Positions 33,465 to 59,462 of a DNA stretch of 64,000 bases are shown in pieces. Below the pieces are notes generated by a model, which was not told the DNA's origin, searched no databases, and saw only the letters and a program-made list of their open reading frames with translations. The stretch comes from Chloroflexota bacterium (GTDB lineage: Bacteria > Chloroflexota > UBA6077 > CF-72). The translations under genes and the position numbers were made by a program. The stretch covers positions 388-64,387 of the forward strand of contig DASXRR010000329.1 of the NCBI GenBank assembly GCA_036506475.1. The letters run 5' to 3'. Numbering within the stretch: the first letter of the stretch is position 1; every line of letters starts with the position of its first letter.

Positions 33465-33554
33465 TTGTGTGGCTGAAAGTGTGGCTGGTGTGTGGCGCGA
33501 GGTCCAGCGCCAGTCGAGACTCGCCCAATCTGCAACCTTCGAGGGAGGAAGCTC

Positions 33555-34919
33555 ATGCCCACAGTCAAGTGGCGGTTCTCGGCTCTAGCCGTTGTTCTTG
33601 TCGTTGCCAGCCTCGCATCTAGACCGACCCTCACATCGGCCGCGACGGCTCAGCGTCAAACTCAAACGCCGACCTGGAGCACGTGGCTGTTGTCGTCGCC
33701 GGGCGAGCTGCGCCTGGGTCCGCCGCCAGATGCGGCCGAGACGCTCGTCGAGCTGGCCGAGATCCAGGCGTTGGCCGACAATCGTGACGTCGCGGCGCTC
33801 GACCGCATCCACTACTGGGATGCCGGCGCTCCGCCATACCGCTGGACGCAGCGGGCGATTACGTACGCCCAGAGCCACGGCGTCGGTGGCAATCGCGCGA
33901 TCCGGCTGATGGCGCTGATGAACGTTGCGATCTACGAGGCGATCGTCGCGGCCGATGACAGCAAACAGGCCCACAACCGTGCACGGCCCGCGACATCGCG
34001 CGCGGCCATCGCGATGCCTGTGACACCTGGGTATCCGGATGAACGGGCAGCGGCAGCGGGTGCCGCGGCGGGTGTGCTTGCCTACCTCTTTCCCGCGGAC
34101 GGAGACCTGTTTGCGAGTTGGGCCGAGGAAGCGGGGCGCTCGCGCGTAGAAGCTGGTGTCGCGTATCCCAGCGACACTGCGGCCGGGCTTGCGCTAGGTC
34201 GCCAGGTCGGAGAGCGGGCCGTCGCATGGGGCAAGACCGATGGCTCTGACGCGAAGTGGACGGGCAGCGTCCCGACCGAGCCTGGCAAGTGGACAGGCAC
34301 AAACCCGATCGAGCCGCTAGCGGGTTCGTGGAAGCCGTGGACGCTCACCAGTGGCAGCCAATTTCGGCCCGGCCCTCCCCCGGCGTCCGATTCCGAGCAG
34401 ATGGAGCGCGATGCGGCGGAGGTGAAGAACTACGCCCGCACCAATCTGACCAACCTGACGGCGAGCTACTGGGAGTACTTCGGTGGCCGCGCCGTATTCG
34501 AATACTGGAACGATCTGGCTAGCCGCCTCATCTTCGAGCACCGACTGCAGGACGATGCGGTGCAGGCGTCACGCGTGTACGCGCTCGTCAACATCGCCAT
34601 GCACGACGCCGGAATCGCCTGTTGGGATGCCAAGTACGCTTATTGGGCCCCGCGGCCGGCGATGATCGATCCGACGATCACAACCCTGTTCGCGACACCC
34701 AACCACCCCAGCTACCCGTCGGCGCACTCGTGTTTCGCCGGCGCAGCGGCGACTATCATGACGCGCCAGTTTCCGTCCGAAGCAGGCTCACTGGATGCCC
34801 TGGTTGACCAGGCCGGCGAGGCGCGGATTATGGGCGGCATCCATTACCGAAACGACGTCGATACGGGCAAGACGCTCGGCGAACGCGTGGGTGAGGTGGT
34901 CTGGACCCGCGGCAGCTAA
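33555..34919 (+). CDS. Secreted PAP2-superfamily protein, vanadium-haloperoxidase/acid-phosphatase-like
   Basis: SD GAGGGAGGA before the ATG at 33555. Signal peptide MPTVKWRFSALAVVLVVASLASRP. PAP2 motifs …HPSYPSAHSCFAGAAA… and …GGIHYRNDVDTG…. Confidence 0.8.
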   Translation: MPTVKWRFSALAVVLVVASLASRPTLTSAATAQRQTQTPTWSTWLLSSPGELRLGPPPDAAETLVELAEIQALADNRDVAALDRIHYWDAGAPPYRWTQRAITYAQSHGVGGNRAIRLMALMNVAIYEAIVAADDSKQAHNRARPATSRAAIAMPVTPGYPDERAAAAGAAAGVLAYLFPADGDLFASWAEEAGRSRVEAGVAYPSDTAAGLALGRQVGERAVAWGKTDGSDAKWTGSVPTEPGKWTGTNPIEPLAGSWKPWTLTSGSQFRPGPPPASDSEQMERDAAEVKNYARTNLTNLTASYWEYFGGRAVFEYWNDLASRLIFEHRLQDDAVQASRVYALVNIAMHDAGIACWDAKYAYWAPRPAMIDPTITTLFATPNHPSYPSAHSCFAGAAATIMTRQFPSEAGSLDALVDQAGEARIMGGIHYRNDVDTGKTLGERVGEVVWTRGS

Positions 34920-35004: not shown

Positions 35005-37449
35005 GTGACGATCTTTGCCCAGCAGCAACATCAATCCCGAGCGCCGGGGCCGTCCAGCGATCTGGGCGTCTACCCCCGGCGCTCGGCTGCGCCGCGGGCC
35101 GAGGGCCTGCCGCCGGCGTTGCGCGATCGTGTGCAGCCTGCTTTTGGATTCGACTTTGCCAATATTCGGCTGCACATCGGAGGTGAAGCGGACACCGCGG
35201 CGCGCGGTCTGCACGCCGCGGCGTTCACGTATGGCCGAGATATCTATTTCCGCGAGCATCGGTTTGAGCCGCACACGGTCGCCGGGCAGTGGCTCATTGC
35301 CCACGAGCTGGCGCACGTCATCCAGCAACAACAGCGCGGAGTCAGTGCGTCGGGCGGCGCGTCCGCTGGTCTCGAGCGCCACGCCACGCAAGCGGCACAT
35401 CTGGCGATCGCCGGGCGCACCGTCCCGCCCGCACCGAGCGGCGCTGGACTCGGGGTCCAGTGCGAAACCGAGGAAGAGTTACGGGCGCAGCTCGCAGCGG
35501 TTCAGGCCAGCATCAACGCCGAACGTGTCCGAATCGCCGGGGTGGAGAGCAGCGCGCCGAAGGTACCAACGTGGGAGCTCGGAACATCGGGCACGTTCGA
35601 ACGAAGAGATTGGGCGGGCATTCGCGCCGGCGAGACGAAGGCATACTACAACCTTCTGGAGCGGCGCGATGTCCTCCAGTTGCGGGTCAACTATCCCGAA
35701 CACCAGTTTCTCGAGCAGGTTTCGATCAACCGAGTGGTGACAAAAGACGGGCAAGTGTTCGAAATCCCCGAGCGCATTGCCGATTGGGCGTTGGTCAAAG
35801 ACGACGAGGTGATCCTGGGCGACAAGAAGAGTACCGGGGCGATCAAGAGTGGGATTAAAGGTGGGATTCCCAAGGACCGGCCGGTGACCGCCGCCGATCT
35901 CCAGGGTTCGTTCCGCACAACAACGGGTCGCTTTACGAAGGGTGGCAATCCGGTGACTCGAACGAAGTTCGGCGATCAGGTGATGAAAGAGCGTTATGCG
36001 ATCATGCGCGCCACCGCGCTGGGCGGCAAAATCGTCGTCGCCGGAACTGGCGCAGGCGGCGCAAAAGTCGAGCGCCAGGTACCTCCAGCCGGTCTGCGCA
36101 TCTCGCGCTTGAATCCATATGGTCAGCTCCCGGACAAGTTGTTGGACGAGCCCGCCGCGGCTCCGCCCCGCCCTGCTCCAAGCACCGCGAGCACACCGCC
36201 GGGCACGGGGTCGTCGGCTGCAACCGGCTCGACGACGCGCACGGTTCCCGCGGGCACCACTGCAGCGCGTGCCAATGCGCCTCAGGACGAATCCGTCGAC
36301 GTCCCGCCGACACGAGCACCAGCTGCTGGCGGCGGCGGGATCACCAGGGCCGAGGTTGCCGCGATTGGCCTCGACATCGGCCAGATCGTCCTGGTGCAGA
36401 TACTCAATCATTACCTCGAGCAGTCCTATGCCGAAATCCGTGGCCAGGCCACGCGCGAGTACATCCGCGACGCCGTCGCCGATGCTTATCCGGAGATGCG
36501 ACAAGCGATCAATGCCCGGCGCACCGAAATCGCGGCGACGCAAGCCCGAGGACGAGAAGCGACCCTGAAGGTGATTGTCAAGGTCGGCTTCAGCGACAAC
36601 ACCGAGAGCGATCCCTTCACCGGGACGACTGGCACGACCATCAGCAACGTACCGAGTACTGCGCATGTCGTGGATGTGCAGGCTGTGCTCGAGGGCGAGA
36701 CGGCCAAACCCTACGACAAGAGCACGAGCTTCGTGGGCGACTTGTTCCGCGGCATGATTGGCTATCGCTCACGGTACTACCATCTCTCCTTTCCAATTGG
36801 TGGCACCGACACACGCGTGCGCCATCAACAGGAGACAGCCAGGAAGATCGAAGCAGCCATTGGCCGGCGTGGCTCGTTCGAGGACCTCATTGTGCAATCA
36901 CGGCTCGGCGGGCAGGACCCGGCGGCACTGCGCGAGTACGTGGACTACCAGCTCGAGACGGCCCTGCCGTCGCCAGGCGGCAAGCCCATCGGTCGCGCTG
37001 ATGTTTCAGCGGAGTATTGGCGCCAGATGCGCGCGTTGATCGACGGCCCGCTCACGGACATCGTTGCGCAAGCGAGGATCAAGTCCGTGCCGCTTGATGT
37101 CCTGAAGCAGCGCGTGGGTGCCGAATCCGACATCGGCAAACAGATCGACGCTCCGCTCCTGGACAAGGAAGCCGTGGCCAAACAGGAGCATCTGTGGACG
37201 CTCGGCGGCACGGATGCGGAGATCGCGCAACAGCGAGCATCAGTCGAGGCGTTGCGCGCGGAGCTCAAGGAAAAGCAGCAGCTGCTGTCGACGCTCGGCA
37301 CAACTGACGCGCGCACGCCCGAGGAGATCGCCGCCAAGGAGCCGCCGCATCCCCCGTGGTCTCGGATTCACTCCTTGAAGCAAGACATCGCCGCGGTCCG
37401 CGAACGCTTGTGGGTGGAAGAAAAGCTGCTCAGGTCTATTGACAAGTAA
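35005..37449 (+). CDS. DUF4157 (HExxH zincin-like) domain protein with a large uncharacterised C-terminal region
   Basis: …FGFDFANIRLHIGGEADTAARGLHAAAFTYGRDIYF…LIAHELAHVIQQQ… (HExxH at nt 35302-35316). Then a ~270-aa region with a D…DxK pattern, a Pro/Ala/Thr linker (36145-36339) and a ~370-aa helical/coiled-coil tail. No obvious SD, so the start is uncertain. Confidence 0.8.
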   Translation: MTIFAQQQHQSRAPGPSSDLGVYPRRSAAPRAEGLPPALRDRVQPAFGFDFANIRLHIGGEADTAARGLHAAAFTYGRDIYFREHRFEPHTVAGQWLIAHELAHVIQQQQRGVSASGGASAGLERHATQAAHLAIAGRTVPPAPSGAGLGVQCETEEELRAQLAAVQASINAERVRIAGVESSAPKVPTWELGTSGTFERRDWAGIRAGETKAYYNLLERRDVLQLRVNYPEHQFLEQVSINRVVTKDGQVFEIPERIADWALVKDDEVILGDKKSTGAIKSGIKGGIPKDRPVTAADLQGSFRTTTGRFTKGGNPVTRTKFGDQVMKERYAIMRATALGGKIVVAGTGAGGAKVERQVPPAGLRISRLNPYGQLPDKLLDEPAAAPPRPAPSTASTPPGTGSSAATGSTTRTVPAGTTAARANAPQDESVDVPPTRAPAAGGGGITRAEVAAIGLDIGQIVLVQILNHYLEQSYAEIRGQATREYIRDAVADAYPEMRQAINARRTEIAATQARGREATLKVIVKVGFSDNTESDPFTGTTGTTISNVPSTAHVVDVQAVLEGETAKPYDKSTSFVGDLFRGMIGYRSRYYHLSFPIGGTDTRVRHQQETARKIEAAIGRRGSFEDLIVQSRLGGQDPAALREYVDYQLETALPSPGGKPIGRADVSAEYWRQMRALIDGPLTDIVAQARIKSVPLDVLKQRVGAESDIGKQIDAPLLDKEAVAKQEHLWTLGGTDAEIAQQRASVEALRAELKEKQQLLSTLGTTDARTPEEIAAKEPPHPPWSRIHSLKQDIAAVRERLWVEEKLLRSIDK

Positions 37450-45448: not shown

Positions 45449-46311
45449 GATTGCGTCTGGGTGTGGCCGGCGGACCGCTGCCGCGCCTCCCCTCGGACTT
45501 TGACGCCGCACTGGCTCGCCAACTTTCCGACCTGGGCGTGCGTGTCCTGACGACGCACTTCCAGCCCTCGCCTGAGGCTGTAGCCGTCGAGGCGGCTCGC
45601 GTGCGCGCTGTGTTGGCCGAGCATGGCCTGTCGATCGTGCAGGCGACCGGCTACAACCCGCAGTTGACTCATCCCGACAACGCCGTCTTGTCGTCCGAGC
45701 TCGATCGACTCCGTGCCGCCTTCGAGACGGCGAAACTACTCGGCGCGGAGATGATCATCAGTGGCTGTGGCTCGCGGCATGCCAGTGCCTTCTATGGTCC
45801 GCACCCGGACAATCATGCGCCCGCCACGCGTGAGCGCCTGATTGACAGCTTGCGCCGCGTTGTCCCGTGGGCTGAGGAGGCCGGCGTCATCTTGGCTCTG
45901 GAGTGCCATGTCACGACCGCGCTCGACACTCCGGAGCATATCCGTGAGGTCATTCTGGCGGTGGACTCACCCTGGGTGCGCGCCAACTTCGACCCGGTCA
46001 ACCTGCTCGGCGACTTCGCCAGGGTCTGGGACAACGCGGCGATGATGCGCCACATGTGGCGCACTCTGGGCGCGTGCTATACGAAGTCGGCGCACATTAA
46101 GGACGTTCGAGCGGATCCGGAGCTGGTGGTGCACATCTCCGAGGCGCCACCCGGCCAGGGCCTGCTCGATCTGGACGCATTCTTCGAGGTAGTCAGCGCT
46201 TTAGGCGAAGATACCGCGGTGATCGTCGAACACCTGCCCGCCGATCAAGCGCTGGCCGCTATCGCGTACGTGAAGCAGGCGGCCGAGCAGCGCGCCTTCA
46301 CGTTCAGTTGA
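45445..46311 (+). CDS. Sugar phosphate isomerase/epimerase (xylose-isomerase-like TIM barrel)
   Basis: AP_endonuc_2-like pattern …ILALECH… …NFDPVNL…. 4-nt overlap with the SDR gene. Confidence 0.8.
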
Positions 46312-48718
46312 GTGCACGCGGTGGCGGGACGATCGACCGCGCGTATTCGAATGCCTCATCCAGGCTCAGTGTGGATCCCGCGGTCCAGGCGCGATTGAGG
46401 GTCTCGGCCGCGATGGTGTCACGCACGCCGGCCAAAGCCTTGTCGTAGAAGAATCGCGTCACCACGTCGTCTCGGCTTCCGAACTGGGCGAAGAGCCGGT
46501 CGCGGGCGCCGAGTAGCCGGGCTGCAGCTTCTGGGTTCCCATGCGCGAGAGCGAGCACGGCCAGATCGCCCAGGATCACCAGCTTCGACTGAACCGATCG
46601 GTGCTGCTGCGCCAGATCCCAGGCTTCGTAAAACAAGCGCGCGGCGCGCCCGACATCGCCCTCGAGCAATGCCAGGTGACCCAGGCCCTGGAGTGGCGGC
46701 GGATCGGGAAAACCGAGTCGGGCGATTTCCTCCCACTGATTTCGCGCTAGCGTGTACTCGCCCGACAGATAGCTCAGCAGGCCCGATGGCCACAGTGCGA
46801 CCGCGATGGGCATCGGGTCGCCGGCGTCACGGCAGATCGCGAGCTGTTCGGCGAGCAAGCGCCGTGCGGCGGGCAGATTTCCCTCGGACAGCTCGATTCG
46901 CCCCAGATGGTCCAGGCAGAAGGCGGCTGCCATCCGCTCGTCAATCGCGCGGGCACTGCTGAGACCTGCCTCGAGGCGCTGCCGCGCAGCGTCGAGGTCG
47001 GCGTCCGCGTACGCCAGGAAACCAGCCGTGCAGTAGGCCGCGACGCGAGCAGCGGAGTCCGGTTGGCCCGCCAAACCAAGCAGCTGCTCAGCCAATGCCC
47101 GGCCTTCACTCAGTGGCCCACACCGGTGCCAGAACTGGAACTGCTTCTGTACCAGCCAGCCGCCAGTATCCAGATCACCCGTTTGGATGCACCAGGCGAC
47201 CGCCTCGCGCAGGTTCGCCCGCTCTTCCTCCACCTCGACCCAGGACGAGATGTAGCCCGACAACACCGGTAGCCGCATGAAATTCGTGGGCTGGCCGCCG
47301 CTTAGCCACTCCAGGTAGTAGCGCGCATGTGCGTGACGCGTCGGCCGTTCGTCGGCGCTGTCGGCCAGCTTCTCGCGAGCAAACTCGCGCAGCGTTTCGA
47401 GCATCGCATAGCGCGTGTGACGACCGACCGTCTGCTGGTACAGCAAGCTCTTACTCAGCAGACTTTCGATCCCATCCAGCACATCAAGGCCGAACTCGCC
47501 AACGGTCGCTTCCGCGGCGCCGAGCGTAAATCCGCCGGCGAAGACCGCTAAGCGTCTGAAGAGCACCTGTTCCTCGGGGTGCAGCAGGTCGTGGCTCCAG
47601 GCGATGGTCGCGCGCAGCGTCTGCTGGCGCCAGGGGAGATCGCGGGCTCCTCCAGTGAGGGCGCGTAGCGGCTGCTCCAGGTGTCGCACGAGGGCATCGG
47701 GCGCCAGTACGCGCACACGTGCGGCGGCGAGCTCGAGCGCGAGCGGCAATCCGTCCAGGCGCTGACAGATCGCAGCAATTGCTGGCGCGTTGTCGGTGGT
47801 GAACAGGAAATCGGGCTGTACTGCCTGAGCCCGATCGAGAAAGAGCTGAATGGCGTCGTACTCAGCCAGTTTGCCCAGATCGCGGATGTCTGACGCGGGA
47901 ATATCCAACGGCTTGACCGGGTATTCGCGTTCTCCATACAGCCGCAACGCGACCCGACTTGTCACGACCACCTTCAGTGTGGGGCAGTCCGCGAGCAGAT
48001 CCGGGGTCGCCAGAGCAGCCTCAATCACATGCTCGAAGTTGTCGAGGATGAGCAGCGTGGGCCGCTCGCACAAGTGACGCGCGAGCGTGCCTAGTAGCGC
48101 CTGGCCCGATCGCTCCTGAAGCCCGAGCACCTGAGCAATGGCTGGCAGCACCTGCGCCGGCTCGGTGATCGCCGCCAGCGCGACAAACACGAGCCGTTCG
48201 TCGAGCTCGGCTCGTCGTTGCTCGGCAACGTGCAGCGCCAGGCGCGTCTTGCCGACCCCGCCGGGTCCGGTCAGCGTGAGCAGGCGGACTCCCTGGCGGT
48301 CCAACAGTCGCTGCAGCTCCGCCACCTCACGTTGGCGACCGATGAACGGCGTCAGGTGGAGCGGCAGGTCGCGGTGTGCAGGACCAGGCCGCTGAACGAC
48401 TCCATGCTCCCCGGCAACCAGCGAACCGCGCTCGGTCGGCGAGCTTCGGTGCGCCAGGCGTGCCTCGGTCACCGCGGAGCGAAGCCAATCGGCGGTGACG
48501 GTAAGCCCGGACAGGGCACCTTCTCGGTACTCACGGAGCAATCCGAGCTCGTGGCACAGTCGTATCAGCGACTCGGTCGCGTCAGCGTCGGGCGGCAGCT
48601 CGCCGTGTTCCCAGTGCTGGATCGTCCGGCGGCCATAACCAAGTCGAGCCGCCCAGCCGTCCTGGCTCACGCCCGCGGCCTCGCGCAATGCGCGGACCAC
48701 GGCGCTCAATCCCGGCAC
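46304..48718 (-). CDS. XRE-HTH / NB-ARC-type ATPase / TPR protein (STAND; no LuxR domain)
   Basis: N-terminal …AAGVSQDGWAARLGYGRRTIQHWEHG…, Walker A GPGGVGKTR, long TPR-like C-terminus. Paralogous over the ATPase core to 30933-33464. Confidence 0.9.
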   Translation of the reverse strand: MPGLSAVVRALREAAGVSQDGWAARLGYGRRTIQHWEHGELPPDADATESLIRLCHELGLLREYREGALSGLTVTADWLRSAVTEARLAHRSSPTERGSLVAGEHGVVQRPGPAHRDLPLHLTPFIGRQREVAELQRLLDRQGVRLLTLTGPGGVGKTRLALHVAEQRRAELDERLVFVALAAITEPAQVLPAIAQVLGLQERSGQALLGTLARHLCERPTLLILDNFEHVIEAALATPDLLADCPTLKVVVTSRVALRLYGEREYPVKPLDIPASDIRDLGKLAEYDAIQLFLDRAQAVQPDFLFTTDNAPAIAAICQRLDGLPLALELAAARVRVLAPDALVRHLEQPLRALTGGARDLPWRQQTLRATIAWSHDLLHPEEQVLFRRLAVFAGGFTLGAAEATVGEFGLDVLDGIESLLSKSLLYQQTVGRHTRYAMLETLREFAREKLADSADERPTRHAHARYYLEWLSGGQPTNFMRLPVLSGYISSWVEVEEERANLREAVAWCIQTGDLDTGGWLVQKQFQFWHRCGPLSEGRALAEQLLGLAGQPDSAARVAAYCTAGFLAYADADLDAARQRLEAGLSSARAIDERMAAAFCLDHLGRIELSEGNLPAARRLLAEQLAICRDAGDPMPIAVALWPSGLLSYLSGEYTLARNQWEEIARLGFPDPPPLQGLGHLALLEGDVGRAARLFYEAWDLAQQHRSVQSKLVILGDLAVLALAHGNPEAAARLLGARDRLFAQFGSRDDVVTRFFYDKALAGVRDTIAAETLNRAWTAGSTLSLDEAFEYARSIVPPPRALN

Positions 48719-50484: not shown

Positions 50485-51978
50485 TTACGGATACGTCGCG
50501 TCGGGCTCGAACGGATAGAGCGGCCGCCGGCGCCGTCGATAGTCGAACGTCGACAGATCCGCCGCCGACGCGCCCGGTGTGTTCACCAGCAGCATTTCGG
50601 CGGCGATGGGCTGATACGCCGGCCGAGGCGACACCACACCTTTGGCCACGATAATCCGGAAGTCCTCGGGCCGCACGCCAACCGTGTAGTACTGTTGCCG
50701 ACTGGTATTCAGGTAGCGTGTCGACACGAGCAACAAAGTGTGCCCATCGTCGGTCTGGAGCACAACTGAGGTGCCATTGTTGAAGTAGCGAAAGCCGCCG
50801 TGGACCGGCTCCGGCTCCTCGAACCGGCCATCCGCGATCAGCCGCACCACGCCTGAGACGGTCAGCGGCGGACCATGCAAGTCGTCCGTCGAACCACCCA
50901 GCGAAAGTCTCACCCGCGCGCCGACGCCGGCCGCAACACACGCGGCGACCGCATCGGCAGCCCGAAATGTCTCGAGCAATCCGCGCACGCCGAGCCGTTG
51001 GGCCTCGGCCAGGATGAACGTCGAGTCGCCCGCACTGCCGGCGCCTACGTTGTCGCCCACGTCCAAGAGCAAAACCGGACCGCGTGGCGCCTGAACGGCA
51101 TGCTCGAGTGCCTCGCGCGGCGTATAGGTCGGCGCATCGGCCAGCGCGTCCCGCCGCGCCCACGCGCGCTCGGCCATCCAGCGCGCAGCATTCCGCGCGA
51201 CAATTGGGTCGCCGTCGGCCACGGCGTAGAACGCGGCGCCCATCTCGGCCACGTCCGCCCACGGGTAGCCCTGGCCCATGCTGGTGTGGATGACGCCCGG
51301 TGTCTGGTTGGCAGCCTCCACATCGGCCATCACGCTGCGCATCGGCTCCTCACGCGTGTCCTGGCGCAGGATGCTGATGACCATCGGCGGCATCTCCAGC
51401 GCAGCGACGGGTTGAATCTCGCCCCGAATTGTGCGCACCAGGATCTCGCACGCGTCCATCGCGCGCTCCCGCGCATCCATATGCGGATTGGTCCGATAGA
51501 CCACGATTGCCTGCGTCTGCTCGACCATCTGCTGCGACAGATTGGCGTGCAAATCGAGCGTCATGACCACCGGCACATCCGCGCCAATCAGCGCCCGCAC
51601 GCGCGTTGCGATTTCGCCGTCGACATCCGGAAACTGCTCGGATACCGCCGCGCCCATCTGATTGAGCAACACTCCGTCCCACGGCCCGTGGTCGCGTAGT
51701 AGCTGCAGCATCTCGCCGACGATTCGATCGAACGCGTCGCTGGTGATCGTGCCCGAGGGATCGTTGACCGCGAAGAGCAGCGGCACGAGCTCGAAGCCGA
51801 ACTCATCAGCCGCCTGAAAGTAGCCGGCGAAGGTCGAGTGCGACGCTCGCTGATTGCGCTCGATGTCATCACCTCGCCACAGTCCGCCGTAGCTCGACGC
51901 GCTGAACGATTCGTACGTGGTCGCGAACGAGGAGAACGTGTTGGTCTCGTGGTGCAGGCCAAGTGCGGCGATGCGCAT
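50485..51978 (-). CDS. M81 family metallopeptidase (MlrC/DUF1485-like)
   Basis: AAGGAGG before the ATG at 51978. MRIAALGLHHETNTF…SDAFDRIVGEMLQLLRDHGPWDGVLLNQMGA…. Confidence 0.85.
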   Translation of the reverse strand: MRIAALGLHHETNTFSSFATTYESFSASSYGGLWRGDDIERNQRASHSTFAGYFQAADEFGFELVPLLFAVNDPSGTITSDAFDRIVGEMLQLLRDHGPWDGVLLNQMGAAVSEQFPDVDGEIATRVRALIGADVPVVMTLDLHANLSQQMVEQTQAIVVYRTNPHMDARERAMDACEILVRTIRGEIQPVAALEMPPMVISILRQDTREEPMRSVMADVEAANQTPGVIHTSMGQGYPWADVAEMGAAFYAVADGDPIVARNAARWMAERAWARRDALADAPTYTPREALEHAVQAPRGPVLLLDVGDNVGAGSAGDSTFILAEAQRLGVRGLLETFRAADAVAACVAAGVGARVRLSLGGSTDDLHGPPLTVSGVVRLIADGRFEEPEPVHGGFRYFNNGTSVVLQTDDGHTLLLVSTRYLNTSRQQYYTVGVRPEDFRIIVAKGVVSPRPAYQPIAAEMLLVNTPGASAADLSTFDYRRRRRPLYPFEPDATYP

Positions 51979-52037
51979 GGCGCCTCCTTGAACATGGTTG
52001 ACGGTCAGCGCGCGGCAAACGTATTGTGGACCACTCG

Positions 52038-53516
52038 ATGAGGCTCGCGGCGCTTGGTATGGCGCACGAAACAAATACCTTCGCCAGGGACGCGACGGAC
52101 TTCGCCGCGTTCGTTCAGAGTGGCATCCTGCGCGGCGAGGAGATCGTGCGCGACTACGGCGAGTCGCATGCCACGATGGCCGGCTTCCTCGAAGCGCGGG
52201 CAACGCTGGGCGTCGACGTCGTGCCACTGCTGTTCACATTCACGAATCCGAACGGCACGATCACCAGCGACGCGTTCGATCGAATCGTCGGCGAGATGCT
52301 GCAACTGCTGCGCGATCGGGGACCGTGGGACGGCGTGCTCCTGGCGCAGCACGGCGCGGCAGTCTCGGAGGCGTATCCAGACATGGATGGCGAGGTCGCG
52401 GCCCGTGTCCGAGCACTGGTCGGCCCCGACGTGCCGATCGGCATGGCGCCCGACATGCACGCCAATCTGTCGCACAAGATGATCGACAACACGACCGTCA
52501 CGGTCGTCTATCGCACCAATCCGCACCTCGATCCCCGCCCGCGCGCGCTCGAGTGCGCCGAGCTCATCGTGCGCACGATCAAGGGCGAGATTCGACCCGT
52601 CCAGGCGCTCGAGACGCCGCCCGTGGTCATCAACATCGTCAAGCAGTTCACCGGCGAGGAGCCCATGCGCAGCCTGGTCGCCGACGTCGAGGAGGTTATC
52701 CAGCGCCCTGGCATGCTGTCGGCCAGCGTCGCCGAGGGCTACCCGTACGCCGACGTCGCCGAGATGGGCATGGCCTTCCTGGCAATTAGCGACGGCGATG
52801 CTAGCGCGGCCCGCAAGGCAGCGCAGTGGATGGCCCGCCGCGCCTGGTCCATGCGCGAGCAGTTTGTCGCCGACACGCCGGCACCCGAGTCGGCGCTCCG
52901 GACAGCCATGGCCGCGCCAAAAGGCCCGATCGTGCTCATGGACGTCGGCGACAATATTGGCGGCGGCAGCCCGGCGGACTCGACGATCCTGCTCGAAGCC
53001 GCCCAGCGCCTCGGCGTGCGCAGTTACTTGCAGACGCTGCGCGATCCGCGGGCGGTGTCGGAGTGCATCGCCGCTGGCGTCGGCTCCACCGTGTCGCTAC
53101 GGGTAGGCGCCAAAACGGATGACCGCCACGGCTCGCCAGTCCAGGTCACCGGCGTCGTGCGCCGCATCTCCGATGGCAAATTCGAAGATCCGACGCCAAC
53201 GCATGGCGGATTCCGTTTCTTCGATGGCGGTCCAACCGTCGTCCTGGAGACGGAGGATGACCATACGCTGGTGCTGACCACGCGTTTGATCGGCAACACC
53301 AGTCTGCAACAGATGTACTCCGTTGGCGTCCGGCCGGAGACAAAACACGTTGTCGTCGCCAAAGGCGTCGTCTCACCCCGGCCAGCGTATGCCCCAATCG
53401 CCGCCCAGGTCGTACTCGTCAATACTCCAGGTGTCACTACGTCTGATTTGTCGACCTTTGAGTACACGCGCCGTCGCCGCCCGCTGTATCCGTTCGAGCC
53501 CGATGCCACCTACTGA
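52038..53516 (+). CDS. M81 family metallopeptidase (MlrC/DUF1485-like), divergent paralog
   Basis: MRLAALGMAHETNTF…SDAFDRIVGEMLQLLRDRGPWDGVLLAQHGA…, collinear with the minus-strand paralog over its full length. Confidence 0.85.
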   Translation: MRLAALGMAHETNTFARDATDFAAFVQSGILRGEEIVRDYGESHATMAGFLEARATLGVDVVPLLFTFTNPNGTITSDAFDRIVGEMLQLLRDRGPWDGVLLAQHGAAVSEAYPDMDGEVAARVRALVGPDVPIGMAPDMHANLSHKMIDNTTVTVVYRTNPHLDPRPRALECAELIVRTIKGEIRPVQALETPPVVINIVKQFTGEEPMRSLVADVEEVIQRPGMLSASVAEGYPYADVAEMGMAFLAISDGDASAARKAAQWMARRAWSMREQFVADTPAPESALRTAMAAPKGPIVLMDVGDNIGGGSPADSTILLEAAQRLGVRSYLQTLRDPRAVSECIAAGVGSTVSLRVGAKTDDRHGSPVQVTGVVRRISDGKFEDPTPTHGGFRFFDGGPTVVLETEDDHTLVLTTRLIGNTSLQQMYSVGVRPETKHVVVAKGVVSPRPAYAPIAAQVVLVNTPGVTTSDLSTFEYTRRRRPLYPFEPDATY

Positions 53517-54818: not shown

Positions 54819-55688
54819 CTAACGGAGTCCAGGCACACGGCGGCGTGCGATCTGGTCCGCGGTCGGCCGTTCGACGTCGTACACCAGGCCGACGCGCTCC
54901 AGTGCAACGATCAAACACGCCGACGCATCTAATTGCCCGGCATCCAGACCGTGGATGGCCGAACGTGGAAACGCGTGGTGATTGTTGTGCCAGCCCTCGC
55001 CCAATGCGAGCAGCCCCACCAGCCACTGGTTTCGACTTCTGTCCGCGGTGACGAAGGACCGAGTGCCGAAAGTGTGGCACACCGAATTGACACTCCAGGT
55101 CGCGTGGTGGAGCAGAAAGGTGCGTACGAATCCGCCCCACAACAGGCCCGACCAGCCGCCGAGCGCGAGCGGCACGGCGAGACTCAGCAGACTCCACACG
55201 ACGTTGGTGCGATCGACAAACACGACCAGACGGTCCTGGATGATGTCTTGACAATAGTGTTGCGCGTCGGCTTGCTCGGCACTGAACAGCCAGCCCAGGT
55301 GGGCATGGAGCAAACCGTCGAGCGGGCTGTGCGGATCACCCTCGCGATCGGACCGCGCGTGGTGCTTGCGGTGATTCGCGGTCCAGTCCAGTGGCGCGCC
55401 TTCGATGGCCATCGAACCCAACACCAGCAACACGAATCGAACCAGCCCGGGTGCCCGAAAGCCGCGGTGGGCGAGCATGCGGTGATAGCCGGTCGTCAGC
55501 CCGAGCGAGATGGGCACATACATGCCCGCGAGGAGCGCAAGATCGCGCCATGACACTGCCTGTGCCCAGAGCAGCCAGACGGCATACACGCACGCGACGA
55601 GTGGCGCAATCACTACAAACAGCACGAGCGCCTGGTGGGCGCGCACGCTCAGGCGTTTGCGGGCCGGGACGGACAGCGTTGCAAACAC
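54819..55688 (-). CDS. Membrane acyl-CoA/acyl-lipid desaturase (Delta9 type)
   Basis: His boxes HRMLAH, HRKHH, HNNHH. The GTG at 55688 is preceded by AGGAG, which overlaps the upstream gene's stop. The ORF-track start at 55838 would overlap the upstream gene by more than 140 nt. Confidence 0.85.
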   Translation of the reverse strand: MFATLSVPARKRLSVRAHQALVLFVVIAPLVACVYAVWLLWAQAVSWRDLALLAGMYVPISLGLTTGYHRMLAHRGFRAPGLVRFVLLVLGSMAIEGAPLDWTANHRKHHARSDREGDPHSPLDGLLHAHLGWLFSAEQADAQHYCQDIIQDRLVVFVDRTNVVWSLLSLAVPLALGGWSGLLWGGFVRTFLLHHATWSVNSVCHTFGTRSFVTADRSRNQWLVGLLALGEGWHNNHHAFPRSAIHGLDAGQLDASACLIVALERVGLVYDVERPTADQIARRRVPGLR

Positions 55689-55695
55689 GCCGCTC

Positions 55696-56967
55696 CTAGC
55701 TTCGGCCGCTCTGGCGCGTGTGAGCCGCCGCGAAATTCGCGCTGCCATAGCTGGCCATCGATGCCGCGGCGGAGATCTCCAGACACAGCGCGGCGGCGGC
55801 GACGATTTGCGCCAGGCGATACGCGCTACCCGGACCATGACAGCGCATCAGCGACAGATATGCCCGCGCATGTGGCAGTCCGGTGCCGCCGCCAACGGTC
55901 CCGACCTCCACACCCGACAGCCGGATGGCCGCGTGGATGCCGCCTTCGACCGGCTGCAGCAGGTCGTGCGCCATGCTGCTGGTGCCAACCATGCCCAGGT
56001 CCTGTCCAGTCGCCGCGAACAGCGCGGCAATCGCGGACGCCGGTGTAAACGCGACCGACTGCATGTCACTGGCGTGACTGCCATGCAGCCCAGCGTGCTC
56101 CAACGCAACGAGGTCGGCGACGGTCGTGCGTAACATTCGGCGTAGTGTCTCGTCGCACAGCGTCGCTTCGGCCAGCACCGTCTTGCCGTGCCCGCCGGCG
56201 ATGAAGTACTGCGCGCTGGGTTTCTTGTCGCCGCCCATATTTGTCTCCAGAAACATGCGCAGCGGATGGAAGCCGCATTCCGCGGCGAAACGGTCGAGCA
56301 CGAATGCGTGGTTCAGTGCGTGTGCGTTGCGCGTCACCATGTTCGGTCCACACGCCTCACCGGTCGTGAAGCGGTACAGCACATGGCACACCGGCCCGAG
56401 AACATGCGTATCGACTTCCCACAGTCGGGCATGACGACTCAGGCGCGCCGCTCCACCGAGTTGCTCCTGATACAGCGGATTGGCCGGGTCGCGCAGCCAC
56501 GCGCGCATATCGACCGTATGCGCGGCGATCCAACGCGCGAAGATCACCGCCTGCTCGGTGGTTTGGAACGCGAAACACGAATCACGTGTCATTCGGTCGT
56601 GCACCACGTGCGTCCGTACGCCGCCGTCCTGAAGGACCGCGTTCATACCACGCAGCATCGACGCTGACAGGCCACCTTCTGTGTGCGCGAGCGGCACGAA
56701 TACGTCGTCCGTCTCGCGCCCATCCTCCACAATAGCGCCGTTCACGTCATCCAGGCGGTACTGGCCCAGGCTCACGCGCAATGGGCCGACCACACTGACC
56801 GGCAGAAGCATGTGCCCGGTCAACGCCTCCTGGGCAGTGGCAAATTCCTCCGCCGGGCGCGGCCAGTCCAGTACGAACTGGTGCTCGGGCGACCAGTCGG
56901 CGAGCCCGCGCAGCAGCGCTTGTCGCTCGGCGATCGAGGCCGGCGTATTCTTACGTGGCCAATGCAT
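55696..56967 (-). CDS. HMG-CoA reductase family protein, divergent (non-canonical Asp motif)
   Basis: …PLAHTEGGLSASMLRGMN…, …TTGEACGPNMVTRN… (canonical GDAMGxN), …GVEVGTVGGGTGL…. The ATG at 56967 lies 17 nt inside the end of the upstream gene. Confidence 0.75.
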   Translation of the reverse strand: MHWPRKNTPASIAERQALLRGLADWSPEHQFVLDWPRPAEEFATAQEALTGHMLLPVSVVGPLRVSLGQYRLDDVNGAIVEDGRETDDVFVPLAHTEGGLSASMLRGMNAVLQDGGVRTHVVHDRMTRDSCFAFQTTEQAVIFARWIAAHTVDMRAWLRDPANPLYQEQLGGAARLSRHARLWEVDTHVLGPVCHVLYRFTTGEACGPNMVTRNAHALNHAFVLDRFAAECGFHPLRMFLETNMGGDKKPSAQYFIAGGHGKTVLAEATLCDETLRRMLRTTVADLVALEHAGLHGSHASDMQSVAFTPASAIAALFAATGQDLGMVGTSSMAHDLLQPVEGGIHAAIRLSGVEVGTVGGGTGLPHARAYLSLMRCHGPGSAYRLAQIVAAAALCLEISAAASMASYGSANFAAAHTRQSGRS

Positions 56968-57937
56968 ACCGTGCTGACGTCGGCGCACAGAGTGACGCCA
57001 CCAGACAGCCAAAACAGCGCGGGAGAAGTCCCGTCGCCTGGCTCGGTACGGGTTCGGCGTCGATCTGGATGTTTTCCTCAGCCGGCGAATCATGTCCTGG
57101 CTGGGTCGGCGCGCGCGGTGGTTCGGGCGGTCCGGAGTCGCATAATCCGATACGAGTACTGACATGCTCCAGCTCGGCGCACAGCTCCAACACGAACCGA
57201 TCGCCGTCGAAGTTCAGCACCTCGCAATCACTTCGAATACGATCGACGCCGCGGGGCACCATGCGTAGTATTTCGTCGCGCGTCTCGATCAACGCGCGGC
57301 GACGCGCAGGCGACAATGCCGGGACACGCCGGCTGAGATAGCGCACCGCGAAGGCCTGGTGGCGCGATTCGTCCTGCAAGATGCGCGTGGCAAGTTGACC
57401 AAACAGCGCCTGGCGCTGGCTGCGCGCAAACGATTGGTAAAAGAGCCTGGCGAAGAGGTCGCTGATGAGGATGCCCCAGGTCCAGTCGATGCGATCGCCG
57501 CGCCGCAATCGATGGTGGAAGCGCAGCATTTCAGGCATCGCGCGGATGCTGAGCGGATCGTGCCCGAGGTGCTGATAGAGTCGGGTCAGGGCCTCGAAGT
57601 GGCGCGCCTCATCCATGATGAAGGCAGCCACATAGAGTTGCGCGCTCGATTCGCCAGCTTCCATGAGTTGGGTGAGCACGCGCCCGGCGCCCAGCATGGC
57701 GGTCTGCTCGCCCAGGTAGACCGGGGTCAGCAGGTGTGCGAGCGCCTCCGCCTGGCGCGCCGACAACTGCAGCGGCACCGTCCAGTTGACGTCGCGGGAG
57801 GTCCAGCCCGCGTGGGCCGACTTGTGAAACAACTCGAGGAACAGGTCGTCGTCGAAGTCGGGGAGTATGCGGATGATGCCGCGGAACCCCGGCGGTGACT
57901 GCGCAGGACTTGCTGCGGGCATACGCCTCCCCGACAT
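56951..57937 (-). CDS. Ferritin-like di-iron (AurF/desaturase-like four-helix-bundle) oxygenase candidate
   Basis: Two ExxH motifs ~90 residues apart (FIMDEARHFEAL and ILQDESRHQAFA), plus a candidate ligand Glu in …VYLGEQTAML…. Confidence 0.6.
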   Translation of the reverse strand: MSGRRMPAASPAQSPPGFRGIIRILPDFDDDLFLELFHKSAHAGWTSRDVNWTVPLQLSARQAEALAHLLTPVYLGEQTAMLGAGRVLTQLMEAGESSAQLYVAAFIMDEARHFEALTRLYQHLGHDPLSIRAMPEMLRFHHRLRRGDRIDWTWGILISDLFARLFYQSFARSQRQALFGQLATRILQDESRHQAFAVRYLSRRVPALSPARRRALIETRDEILRMVPRGVDRIRSDCEVLNFDGDRFVLELCAELEHVSTRIGLCDSGPPEPPRAPTQPGHDSPAEENIQIDAEPVPSQATGLLPRCFGCLVASLCAPTSARYALAT

Positions 57938-58044
57938 TGAGCGAAGTAGGTGCCGAGCCTACCACCGCGACTCGCCAGCATGATAGCCATTGCCAGCAGC
58001 GGAGTATCCTGCCTGCGCGACACGACAGTGTCCGGGGAGGAGAC

Positions 58045-58665
58045 GTGCACACGCGGAGCCTCATCCGAGCGTCAGCTACGGCGCTGGTGGCCGGCGGCGT
58101 GAGCCTCGGGCTGTTCGTCCTGGTCTTATACCCGGTGGGTGGCTTCTTCGGCGCCGAGCACGCGCGCCATCCGGCGTGGATACCCGCGCACACCCTGCAC
58201 TTCATAGGCGCCCTCCTGACGCTCGTCGGCCTGATCGGCCTGTACGCCTACACTGCGAACAACCTGGGCCGACTCGGCACCATCGGCCTGGTGCTCGCGG
58301 TCTGCGGGACGGCTCAGTTCGTGGGCACCGGCATGCTGACGGCATTCGTCTGGCCGGTGCTGGCCAGTGCCGCGCCAGACACAATCGCACCAGGCGGAGC
58401 GCTCTTCACATCGCCGGCGAACACCCTGTTCTACACCACCGTGCTGACGCTGATCCCCGGCTACGTCGTGTTAGCGGTTGCACTCGCCCGCGCCCGCATC
58501 CTCACGCGCGCCGCCGCCGTGCTGCTGGCTATTGGCGTCGTCCTGGCCATCACGCCTCCCGAACCCGTCGGTCCCGTCCCCTGGCTAGGACTGGTCATTG
58601 GCGGCGTCCTGTTCGCCGCCGGCGAAGTCTGGCTTGGCTATCGGCTCTGGTCGCTCGCGAAATGA
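58045..58665 (+). CDS. Hypothetical polytopic membrane protein
   Basis: GGGGAGGAG before the GTG at 58045. ~6 hydrophobic helices. No family recognised. Confidence 0.55.
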   Translation: MHTRSLIRASATALVAGGVSLGLFVLVLYPVGGFFGAEHARHPAWIPAHTLHFIGALLTLVGLIGLYAYTANNLGRLGTIGLVLAVCGTAQFVGTGMLTAFVWPVLASAAPDTIAPGGALFTSPANTLFYTTVLTLIPGYVVLAVALARARILTRAAAVLLAIGVVLAITPPEPVGPVPWLGLVIGGVLFAAGEVWLGYRLWSLAK

Positions 58666-59462
58666 GTCAACTGACGCACGCGTCGGTCAGTCGCCAGCAG
58701 AAGGTGTTCTATGCCGCCGTTGGCCTGCTCGCGGCATGGGTAGGCGCCTGGGGCCTCGTCGCACCTGCCTACGTCGACTGGGCGCTGCCGTGGATCGTGC
58801 CACCACTCCATGCTCGCTTCCTGGGCGCGATGTACGTCTCGGGCGCCACCTTCATGCTCGGCGCAATCCTTGCACGACACTGGTCAGCAATCCGCGTGAT
58901 CGTGCCCATGATCAGCATCTGGACCGGCACCTTGCTACTGGTCTCACTGCTGTACCTGCCAGCGTTCGACTTCACGCATCACCAGGTCTGGATCTGGTTC
59001 GCCGCGTACCTGATTTATCCCGTCATCGCCGCGATCATCGCCTGGCGCAAGCGCACCAGCGCCGACCACGGAACCGGCCCCGCCGTGCCTCAGGCATTGA
59101 AGCAGTACCTTTTGGCCCAGGGCGTCCTGGTCACCCTGCTAGCGCTGGTCCTCCTGTTCCTGCCGCAAGTCGGCGCATCACTCTGGCCCTGGCCAATCAC
59201 GCCGCTCCTCACGCAGCTCTACGGCGCCCCTTTCCTGGCCTACGGCCTGGGCAGCCTGTACGCCACCCGGCAAGCCGCCAAATCGGATCTCACCCTGTTC
59301 CTACTCGGCACCGCCGTCTTCACTGCCACGGTCCTCGCCGCCTCGATCATCCACCTGGCGCTCTTCTCCTTCAACGCCCCTGCAAGTTGGCTCTGGTTCG
59401 CCGGCTTCGGCCTGGCCACGCTGATCCTCGTGCTCAGTGCTGGTCACAGCCTCAGGACGTAA
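58662..59462 (+). CDS. Hypothetical polytopic membrane protein
   Basis: ATGA overlap with the upstream gene. ~8 hydrophobic helices. No family recognised. Confidence 0.6.
   Translation: MSQLTHASVSRQQKVFYAAVGLLAAWVGAWGLVAPAYVDWALPWIVPPLHARFLGAMYVSGATFMLGAILARHWSAIRVIVPMISIWTGTLLLVSLLYLPAFDFTHHQVWIWFAAYLIYPVIAAIIAWRKRTSADHGTGPAVPQALKQYLLAQGVLVTLLALVLLFLPQVGASLWPWPITPLLTQLYGAPFLAYGLGSLYATRQAAKSDLTLFLLGTAVFTATVLAASIIHLALFSFNAPASWLWFAGFGLATLILVLSAGHSLRT

Follow-up and report, generated by a model that had tools for sequence, protein, structure and literature searches.

A three-gene operon on the minus strand of a 64-kb stretch of Chloroflexota DNA (contig DASXRR010000329.1; hereafter the window) was analysed. 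It encodes a ferritin-like di-metal carboxylate oxygenase, a divergent reductase of the 3-hydroxy-3-methylglutaryl-CoA (HMG-CoA) reductase (HMGR) family and a membrane fatty-acid desaturase. The trio belongs to a widespread bacterial module whose product is most likely an unusual membrane lipid, a long-chain alcohol or diol, and not an isoprenoid. What is conserved as a unit is the pair of di-metal and reductase genes, to which a lipid kinase is usually added; the desaturase of the window is a rare, lineage-specific accessory. The pair is read here, with somewhat less than even confidence, as a module for a hydroxy-alcohol or diol-type lipid, in which an oxygenation would be combined with the four-electron reduction of a thioester. 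The module is a variant of known enzyme kinds and could realistically account for an orphan class of lipids.

The reductase subfamily and its gene neighbourhoods

Three open reading frames (ORFs) lie head to tail in the positions given by an initial annotation made from the sequence alone, and every motif quoted there was recovered from their translations. The second ORF matched Pfam HMG-CoA_red (PF00368) with 243.9 bits (E = 3.6e-72; profile positions 2-364 of 368) and the third FA_desaturase with 68.4 bits, in agreement with the families proposed at that stage. The motifs TEGGLSAS, GTVGGGT and GEACGPNMV are all present in the reductase, and its best PDB matches are class I HMGRs (6HR7, E = 1e-35; the human enzyme, E = 3e-22). 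Against the NCBIfam equivalog TIGR00533 it scored 181.1 bits, below the cut-off of 441.8. With the solved class I enzymes (human HMGCR, PDB 1DQ8/1DQA; Methanothermococcus thermolithotrophicus, 6HR7), to which it is about 30% identical as judged by eye from alignments, the reductase shares the fold family and the catalytic Glu, Lys, Asp and His; the Lys in the DKKP cis-loop, the Asp in GQD and the C-terminal His are all retained. It differs from them in having no membrane or sterol-sensing domain and in its coupling to an oxygenase, while its relatives are coupled to a lipid kinase and no mevalonate-pathway context was seen.

Residues were mapped by comparing the reductase with human HMGCR, using the residue roles given in PMC7503714 (Table 1). 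The initial annotation had singled out the catalytic Glu, Lys, Asp and His positions; these were found intact, and the changes fall on the pocket (S684, K735 and N755) and on the DAMGxN motif. E97, K248, D323 and H416 are invariant across 23 members of the subfamily, and the pocket replacements are likewise conserved throughout it. The equivalent of DAMGxN, GEACGPN in the window, reads [DE]AC/V/AG[PAQ]N over the subfamily; in class I HMGR this motif forms part of the NADPH site through Gly656, Met657 and Asn658 (PMC7503714). Because the catalytic tetrad is kept while S684, K735, N755 and DAMGxN are replaced, the reduction of a thioester to an alcohol appears to be retained, probably as the same two-step hydride reduction, in a remodelled HMG pocket. 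In human HMGCR structures Lys735 pairs with the HMG carboxylate, and its loss points to a substrate without a carboxylate of that type.

Table 1. Positions of human HMGCR and their equivalents in the reductase of the window
Human HMGCR	Role	Reductase	State
Glu559	catalytic	E97	kept
Lys691	catalytic	K248	kept
Asp767	catalytic	D323	kept
His866	catalytic	H416	kept
Asp690, Lys692	pocket	D247, K249	kept
Arg590		R128	kept
Ser684	pocket	E241	Glu, invariant in subfamily
Lys735	pocket	A292	Ala, Leu, Ile, Val or His among relatives
His752		T308	Thr
Asn755	pocket	S311	Ser, invariant in subfamily
DAMGxN	NADPH site	EACGPN	replaced

The comparison supports the view, already taken in the initial annotation, that the protein is not a bona fide HMGR. 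A genuine but divergent HMGR, acting in mevalonate synthesis or degradation among unrelated neighbours, would agree with the strong Pfam match, the intact tetrad and the database name 3-hydroxy-3-methylglutaryl-CoA reductase; it is barely plausible in view of the TIGR00533 score (181 against 441.8), the replacement of S684, K735, N755 and DAMGxN by residues conserved over the subfamily, and neighbours that are both conserved and lipid-related. HMG-CoA synthase, GHMP kinase and prenyl-synthase domains were all missing from the 40 ORFs scanned with Pfam (of about 53 likely ones in the window), which bears out the earlier remark that the 64 kb hold no isoprenoid gene, and the inspected neighbourhoods of relatives contained no mevalonate-pathway gene either. 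One relative carries ispH (LYTB), a gene of the methylerythritol phosphate (MEP) pathway, three genes upstream of the pair, which also speaks against a mevalonate role.

More than 100 metagenomic homologues are 65-74% identical to the reductase, and the genes of the operon are therefore real and not chance ORFs. These homologues are pipeline-named HMG-CoA reductase throughout, part of a systematic misannotation in which thousands of entries named 3-hydroxy-3-methylglutaryl-CoA reductase wrongly imply mevalonate capacity in Dormibacterota, Binatia and CSP1-3. The limits of the subfamily were drawn by an exhaustive search of 1.84 billion cluster representatives. Members scored 650-300 bits (five full-length representatives) and everything outside at most 190 bits; the subfamily is discrete, separated from other HMGR-family proteins by a sharp score gap.

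Carriers of the subfamily were collected by scanning one genome per species for the motifs NMGGDKKP and GQDLGMVG, resulting in at least 540 species-level genomes. Neighbourhood counts cover the best 80 of these, all of them metagenome-assembled genomes (MAGs), from CSP1-3 (labelled 'Armatimonadota'), Dormibacterota, Chloroflexota, Binatia (labelled 'Deltaproteobacteria'), Thermaerobacter-like Bacillota, and Gaiellaceae and other Actinomycetota (Table 2). Neighbouring loci were grouped by crude ORF clustering, which over-extends starts in high-G+C loci and was used only to choose representatives; family assignments were confirmed by Pfam on the representatives chosen. In nearly all CSP1-3-like, Dormibacterota, Chloroflexota and Binatia genomes the gene immediately upstream of the reductase is that of the di-metal protein; in Bacillota it is adjacent in 4/6. 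Of 44 related loci, 39 have the conserved reductase core beginning no more than 75 nucleotides (nt) past the di-metal stop (median 38 nt). Among the contextual signals the strongest comes from a gene missing in the window, that of a lipid kinase: a DAGK_cat+YegS_C gene is adjacent in 40 of the 43 genomes outside Bacillota and Actinomycetota and starts 17 nt (median) past the reductase stop. Of those 43 genomes, 7 have a PlsC-type acyltransferase (PF01553) and 6 a second-type FA_desaturase in the neighbourhood, and a CDP-alcohol phosphatidyltransferase lies just upstream in 12 Binatia loci. This setting of YegS/DAGK kinase, PlsC and desaturases beside the relatives agrees with the lipid context suggested initially and is a stronger lipid signal than the window alone had offered. 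Across about six phyla and more than 500 species, the module is located among housekeeping genes.

Table 2. Genes near the reductase among the best 80 carrier genomes
Lineage	Di-metal gene	YegS/DAGK_cat kinase	PlsC-type acyltransferase	Second-type FA_desaturase
CSP1-3-like	4/5 (beside reductase)	5/5	5/5	0/5
Dormibacterota	3/3	3/3	2/3	2/3
Chloroflexota	5/5	4/5	0/5	4/5
Binatia	28/30	28/30	0/30	0/30
Bacillota	4/6	0/6	0/6	0/6
Actinomycetota	1/31	0/31	0/31	0/31

Synteny of all three genes was a question posed by the initial annotation. It held for the di-metal/reductase pair; the trio was rejected as a conserved unit, a window-type desaturase being found near the pair in only one of the best 80 genomes (locus L063), at 40% identity and not adjacent. 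The His boxes of the window desaturase (HRMLAH, HRKHH and HNNHH) fit HxxxxH, HxxHH and HxxHH, and we take their spelling to resemble that of Delta9 (SCD/DesA3-like) enzymes. Against the NCBIfam DesA family model the protein scored 85.5 bits, far under the cut-off of 400.

The loci of Gaiellaceae and other Actinomycetota represent a different module architecture. In these, a very distant ferritin-like gene with ExxH plus DxxH motifs and no Pfam match is divergent upstream (L055:7129-7947, minus strand), and a 4HBT hot-dog thioesterase-like protein is encoded downstream of the reductase (L073:9337-9804). The most divergent representative within the clade (P0123, 46% identity; L085:500-5126) is followed by a cyclic-nucleotide-binding (cNMP-binding) protein, and a convergent gene encodes an MMPL/sterol-sensing-domain transporter, which points to lipid export.

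Outside the subfamily, the nearest relatives form a second non-canonical HMGR-like group (e.g., P0148, P0152 and P0218; 35-40% identity) characterised by the motifs GDAAGQNMTT and GQDIACVHES. Like the subfamily, this sister group retains the catalytic residues and has lost Lys735. Many of its proteins carry a fused C-terminal APH/EcKL/choline-kinase-like kinase, in contrast to the separate YegS/DAGK gene in relatives of the window module. One architecture joins AMP-binding, PP-binding, HMGR-like and kinase domains, and another DUF3419, HMGR-like and kinase domains. Neighbouring genes encode acyl-AMP ligase, CDP-alcohol phosphatidyltransferase, CarS-like cytidylyltransferase, UbiA, DUF3419 (BtaA-like) and a PPDK-like protein. 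Representative loci are L087:7001-9766 and L089:609-4973 (neighbours to about 10000), the latter with a fusion to acyl-AMP ligase and a carrier domain. No R2lox-like partner was present in three sister-group contexts inspected. The sister group shows independently a logic of reducing an acyl thioester and then phosphorylating the alcohol in lipid-type clusters, and because it repeats this logic, the same reading of the separate YegS/DAGK kinase is supported. The sister-group clusters look like another pathway to a glycerol-free phospholipid. Counting this group, the evidence indicates that the HMGR fold was recruited at least twice for lipid chemistry of this kind.

The di-metal protein

The first ORF scored 26.2 bits against Pfam AurF (PF11583), for which the gathering score is 29.6; a PF11583 match is precomputed in most of its homologues. 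Both ExxH motifs, MDEARH and QDESRH, are found in the translation. Alignments of a wider set (A2) and of a closer set of 39 homologues (A3) were used for assigning ligands. E77, E110, H113, D160, E190 and H193 are conserved in the family alignments; E77, D160 and E190 are about 90% conserved in the wider set, and all ligands but E77 are invariant in the closer one. From these alignments a classic four-carboxylate/two-His site is predicted. H113 and H193 are the only His residues invariant family-wide, with the Binatia and Actinomycetota versions included, while the invariance of H142 is confined to the 39 closer homologues, Binatia having Gln at this position.

When the family profile was compared with the PDB, R2lox proteins gave the best matches (E = 1e-9 to 1e-6), and the C-terminal half next matched cyanobacterial aldehyde decarbonylases (E = 1e-7 to 1e-5). 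An AlphaFold2 (AF2) model of the protein (pLDDT 80.5, pTM 0.74) was used for a Foldseek search, in which the first 24 matches were all R2lox (TM 0.62-0.71), followed by R2 proteins of ribonucleotide reductase (RNR). AurF and CmlI structures were retrieved neither by the PDB profile at E<=1 nor among the top 50 fold matches. By its modelled fold, the protein thus appears closest to the fatty-acid-binding R2lox proteins, not to AurF. It shares with R2lox the four-carboxylate/two-His pattern, but identity is only 16-19%, and an extra disordered linker and a Cys-rich tail are present. The NCBIfam R2lox models scored 16-23 bits, against cut-offs of 194-315, and in a profile alignment to chain 6F6C, a V72A mutant, the Val of the Tyr-Val ether cross-link of R2lox (V72 in GkR2loxI) falls on Ala80, a residue invariant in the family. 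Because the curated models score so far under their cut-offs and the cross-link Val is replaced by Ala, the family is probably not bona fide R2lox. R2lox proteins hold C16/C18 (hydroxy) fatty acids at the metal site, and their physiological function is not known (PMC9314684).

The initial annotation had proposed an O2-activating di-metal protein, with which the six conserved ligand residues and the modelled R2lox fold are consistent; an AurF-type family was also named there, and on this point R2lox proved nearer. AurF and CmlI have three His residues at the di-iron site. They have in common with the protein a ferritin-like di-iron helical bundle and a weak to moderate Pfam match; the protein differs from them in lacking a third His ligand family-wide and in having no aromatic-amine pathway context. 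An identity as AurF-type N-oxygenase was rejected on the ligand pattern and on the profile and fold matches to R2lox.

The Pfam label AurF, an N-oxygenase family, could be taken to indicate a specialised small-molecule pathway unrelated to membranes, in which an amino- or hydroxy-acid thioester would be N-oxygenated or hydroxylated, then reduced and phosphorylated; the substrate's chain length is not evident from the sequence. Such a pathway is improbable. Only two His residues are invariant, against three in AurF/CmlI, and neither the PDB profile nor the fold search retrieved AurF. The partners (DAGK_cat kinase, PlsC, membrane desaturases and CDP-alcohol phosphatidyltransferase) are those of lipid metabolism, and the occurrence among housekeeping genes across so many species and phyla is unlike that of a sporadic secondary-metabolite cluster.

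The partial similarity to aldehyde decarbonylases raises the question of a hydrocarbon product. In a route resembling the cyanobacterial AAR/ADO pair, which likewise combines a thioester reductase with a ferritin-like di-iron enzyme on fatty substrates, an aldehyde released by the HMGR-like enzyme would be deformylated to an alkane or alkene by the ferritin-like enzyme, and the desaturase would add unsaturation. The C-terminal half-profile matches, a precomputed PF11266 (Ald_deCOase) match in one homologue and the absence of a kinase from the window version are in keeping with this route. It is nevertheless distinctly improbable: full-length sequence and fold matches are to R2lox and not to ADO, R2lox proteins assayed elsewhere had no ADO activity (PMC9314684), and the reductase retains all four residues for both reduction steps. 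The lipid kinase that follows the reductase in 40/43 of the genomes outside Bacillota and Actinomycetota would find no hydroxyl on a hydrocarbon. AAR itself belongs to a family unrelated to the HMGR-like reductase.

The C-terminal tail has the form PRCFGCLxxxxC, and C308, C311 and C317 are invariant in the 39 closer homologues. It occurs in the CSP1-3-like, Chloroflexota, Dormibacterota and Bacillota versions and is absent from those of Binatia and Actinomycetota. In the AF2 model a short helix (309-317) follows a disordered, low-pLDDT, Pro-rich linker (tail residues about 306-317). The tail could be a membrane anchor or a site of lipidation, metal binding or redox chemistry.

Candidate lipid pathway

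The scheme that follows is a proposal in its substrate, carrier (CoA or acyl carrier protein, ACP), regiochemistry, order of steps and final lipid. The R2lox-like enzyme would add oxygen near the head of a long-chain acyl thioester, 2-hydroxylation being the simplest case, and the NAD(P)H-dependent HMGR-like enzyme would reduce the thioester to a primary alcohol, resulting in a long-chain hydroxy-alkanol, that is, an alkanediol. Alternatively, the di-metal enzyme might act on the alcohol following reduction. The YegS/DAGK-type kinase, encoded by the next gene in most carriers, would phosphorylate the primary alcohol. The alkane-1,2-diol 1-phosphate so formed would have the same shape as lysophosphatidic acid, and acylation of its remaining (secondary) hydroxyl by a PlsC-type acyltransferase would give a glycerol-free analogue of phosphatidic acid entering head-group synthesis, in which cytidylyl- and phosphatidyl-transferases would attach the head group. 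In the window, the Delta9-type desaturase takes the place of the kinase as third gene and would put a double bond into an acyl, alkyl or lipid chain; the kinase and acyltransferase of this genome, if present, would be encoded outside the window.

A lipid product is favoured because the partners are a lipid kinase, PlsC, desaturases and CDP-alcohol phosphatidyltransferase and because the R2lox-like relatives bind fatty acids. The initial annotation had left the choice between an unsaturated or hydroxylated fatty alcohol, a long-chain diol and a hydrocarbon. Among these, the diol or hydroxy-alcohol fits the comparative lipid context best, and the hydrocarbon is disfavoured by the kinase and the acyltransferase.

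Alcohol-forming reductases of the FAR family (e.g., Marinobacter Maqu_2220) use NAD(P)H to reduce fatty acyl thioesters by four electrons to primary alcohols, the net reaction that is also proposed for the window reductase. Their fold is of the Rossmann/short-chain dehydrogenase/reductase (SDR) type, in contrast to the HMGR fold, and the HMGR-like enzyme would represent an independent recruitment of this chemistry. A plain fatty-alcohol module would need only an HMGR-like enzyme that reduces ordinary acyl-CoA or acyl-ACP, the di-metal protein being a soluble desaturase or another chain modifier and the alcohol serving alkyl-phosphate, ether-lipid, wax-ester or fatty-glycoside synthesis. The retained thioester-reducing residues and the remodelled HMG pocket, Lys735 loss included, suit it; desaturases recur in the neighbourhoods, ferritin-like enzymes include acyl-ACP desaturases, and the kinase-fused sister group with its acyl-AMP ligase and carrier domain suggests a conversion of fatty acid to alkyl phosphate. 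We consider it unlikely. R128 (Arg590) and D247 (Asp690) are kept and an invariant Glu241 is gained, which would agree with a polar group close to the thioester; for acylation by a PlsC-type enzyme a second hydroxyl is needed; and the strict pairing and translational coupling of oxygenase and reductase suggest consecutive steps on one head group.

The hydroxy-alcohol or diol reading has several points against it. The sequence does not fix the regiochemistry: a hydroxyl might be placed at position 2 or 3, or there might be no hydroxylation, the di-metal enzyme acting as a desaturase or in some other way. No electron-donor gene (ferredoxin or reductase) adjoins the pair. The later steps, phosphorylation and acylation, are unsupported in this genome because the window has no kinase or PlsC gene; a tblastn search of the 64 kb for a homologue of either found none. 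No kinase gene adjoins the reductase in carriers from Bacillota and Actinomycetota, and in the latter the neighbours are limited to a distant ferritin-like protein (18/31) and a 4HBT hot-dog protein (20/31). In CSP1-3-like loci the PlsC gene adjoins cmk, and since cmk-plsC-der is a common housekeeping arrangement, its adjacency is possibly in part incidental. Finally, Thermomicrobium, Sphaerobacter, Nitrolancea, Roseiflexus and Thermus are absent from the best 80 of the at least 540 genomes and from the best 120 proteins.

This last point bears on the long-chain 1,2-diol lipids, which are known from Thermomicrobium roseum, Nitrolancea hollandica, Roseiflexus castenholzii and Thermus and were described in 1986, according to the citation in the T. 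roseum genome paper. They carry the head group at the C1 hydroxyl and a fatty acid ester at the C2 hydroxyl, the alkyl chain running from C3, and in the same paper, of 2009, the route from fatty acid to diol 'remains to be clarified'. This architecture is exactly what an oxygenase, a thioester reductase, a kinase and PlsC would build. It is conceivable, though doubtful, that glycerol-free long-chain 1,2-diol phospholipids have their genetic basis in this module, with its R2lox-like oxygenase, HMGR-like reductase, YegS/DAGK kinase and PlsC. Cultured Thermomicrobia, Thermus and Roseiflexus were found neither among the listed reductase, kinase and di-metal matches nor in the plasmid collection. 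The listed carriers are almost all uncultured lineages, Chloroflexota MAGs ranking high among the matches, and because no cultured diol producer appears among the best matches despite these, the evidence leans against a close orthologue in cultured Thermomicrobia. In the legible part of an RNA-seq supplement on T. roseum (PMC6776052), trd_0351 appears as a DAGK_cat protein with good expression (fold change 0.717). The uncharacterised trd_0349 has nearly the same value (0.722), and the entry for trd_0350 could not be read; the three genes might form an orthologous trio. A text search of the literature for the locus tags trd_0349 to trd_0351 found nothing. Searches that did not extend to subscription-only papers gave no publication after 2009 that assigns genes to the diols and none that ties an HMGR-like gene to lipids, diols included.

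With two to four genes, the module is a compact candidate lipid pathway; its carriers number at least 540 species-level genomes, most of them from uncultured lineages of soil and the subsurface. It provides a concrete candidate for the long-standing question of diol-lipid biosynthesis. If the reading as a diol-lipid module is true, 1,2-diol lipids would be far commoner than the few thermophiles suggest, with producers in hundreds of mostly uncultured soil and subsurface lineages spanning CSP1-3, Dormibacterota, Chloroflexota, Binatia, Gaiellales and Thermaerobacter-like Bacillota. It would also give the R2lox-like branch of ferritin-like oxidases, for which the physiological substrate has not been known since their discovery, a functional lead and a first physiological role.

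Gene boundaries and other genes of the window

Coordinates of the operon and of other features are given in Table 3. The junctions had been described in the initial annotation as a 17-nt overlap followed by an AGGAG over the reductase stop ahead of a GTG, and both were read in the same way here. The di-metal gene ends with its stop at 56951 and contains the reductase ATG at 56967, an overlap that probably reflects translational coupling of the two genes. The AGGAG overlaps the reductase TAG and stands 4 nt ahead of the desaturase GTG. A second in-frame ATG of the di-metal gene, at 57922, is more likely to be the true start, since GGGGAGG precedes it and an identical metagenome gene call is 323 amino acids (aa) long. 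The operon is isolated, with a class-III aminotransferase gene convergent at its 3' end. A scan for promoters and terminators in the operon gave no sigma-70-like promoter and only weak terminator-like hairpins.

Table 3. Coordinates of features in the window (positions of the 64-kb stretch)
Feature	Position	Strand	Basis
Ferritin-like di-metal carboxylate oxygenase (R2lox-like predicted fold; Pfam label AurF)	56951..57937	minus	Pfam, alignments, PDB profile, AF2/Foldseek
Divergent class-I-type HMGR-like acyl-thioester reductase (putative), 423 aa	55696..56967	minus	Pfam HMG-CoA_red, residue mapping, score gap
Membrane fatty-acid desaturase, Delta9 (acyl-CoA/acyl-lipid) type, three His boxes	54819..55688	minus	Pfam FA_desaturase, motifs
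Cys-rich C-terminal tail of di-metal protein, PRCFGCLxxxxC	56987..57022	minus	family alignment, AF2 model
17-nt overlap, di-metal gene end/reductase gene start	56951..56967	minus	read from sequence
Reductase/desaturase junction: TAG 55698-55696, AGGAG 55697-55693, GTG 55688-55686	55686..55698	minus	sequence
Predicted multi-pass membrane protein	57895..58665	plus
Predicted multi-pass membrane protein	58674..59462	plus
475-aa protein with PAP2 domain	33492..34919	plus	Pfam
M81/MlrC-type metallopeptidase (DUF1485 + MlrC_C)	50485..52227	minus	Pfam
M81/MlrC-type metallopeptidase (DUF1485 + MlrC_C)	52026..53516	plus	Pfam
814-aa protein with N-terminal eCIS_core	35005..37449	plus	Pfam (PF13699, 91.5 bits)
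Large HTH + AAA/NB-ARC + TPR regulator	30933..33464	minus
Large HTH + AAA/NB-ARC + TPR regulator	46304..48718	minus

The two membrane proteins, which have no Pfam match, are encoded divergently from the 5' end of the operon. The PAP2 (lipid phosphate phosphatase) domain is confined to the C-terminus of its protein, and this gene, about 21 kb from the operon, is the sole other lipid-phosphate-related gene seen in the window. The 40-ORF Pfam sweep otherwise gave sugar transporters, short-chain dehydrogenases, regulators and M81 peptidases. The two M81 genes are paralogous and in head-to-head orientation; when taken from the start of its longest ORF, the minus-strand copy overlaps its neighbour, and its true start is probably further in. 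The eCIS_core protein has no second recognised domain. Both large regulators combine helix-turn-helix (HTH), AAA/NB-ARC and TPR domains, and the one at 30933 additionally carries a C-terminal LuxR/GerE domain.

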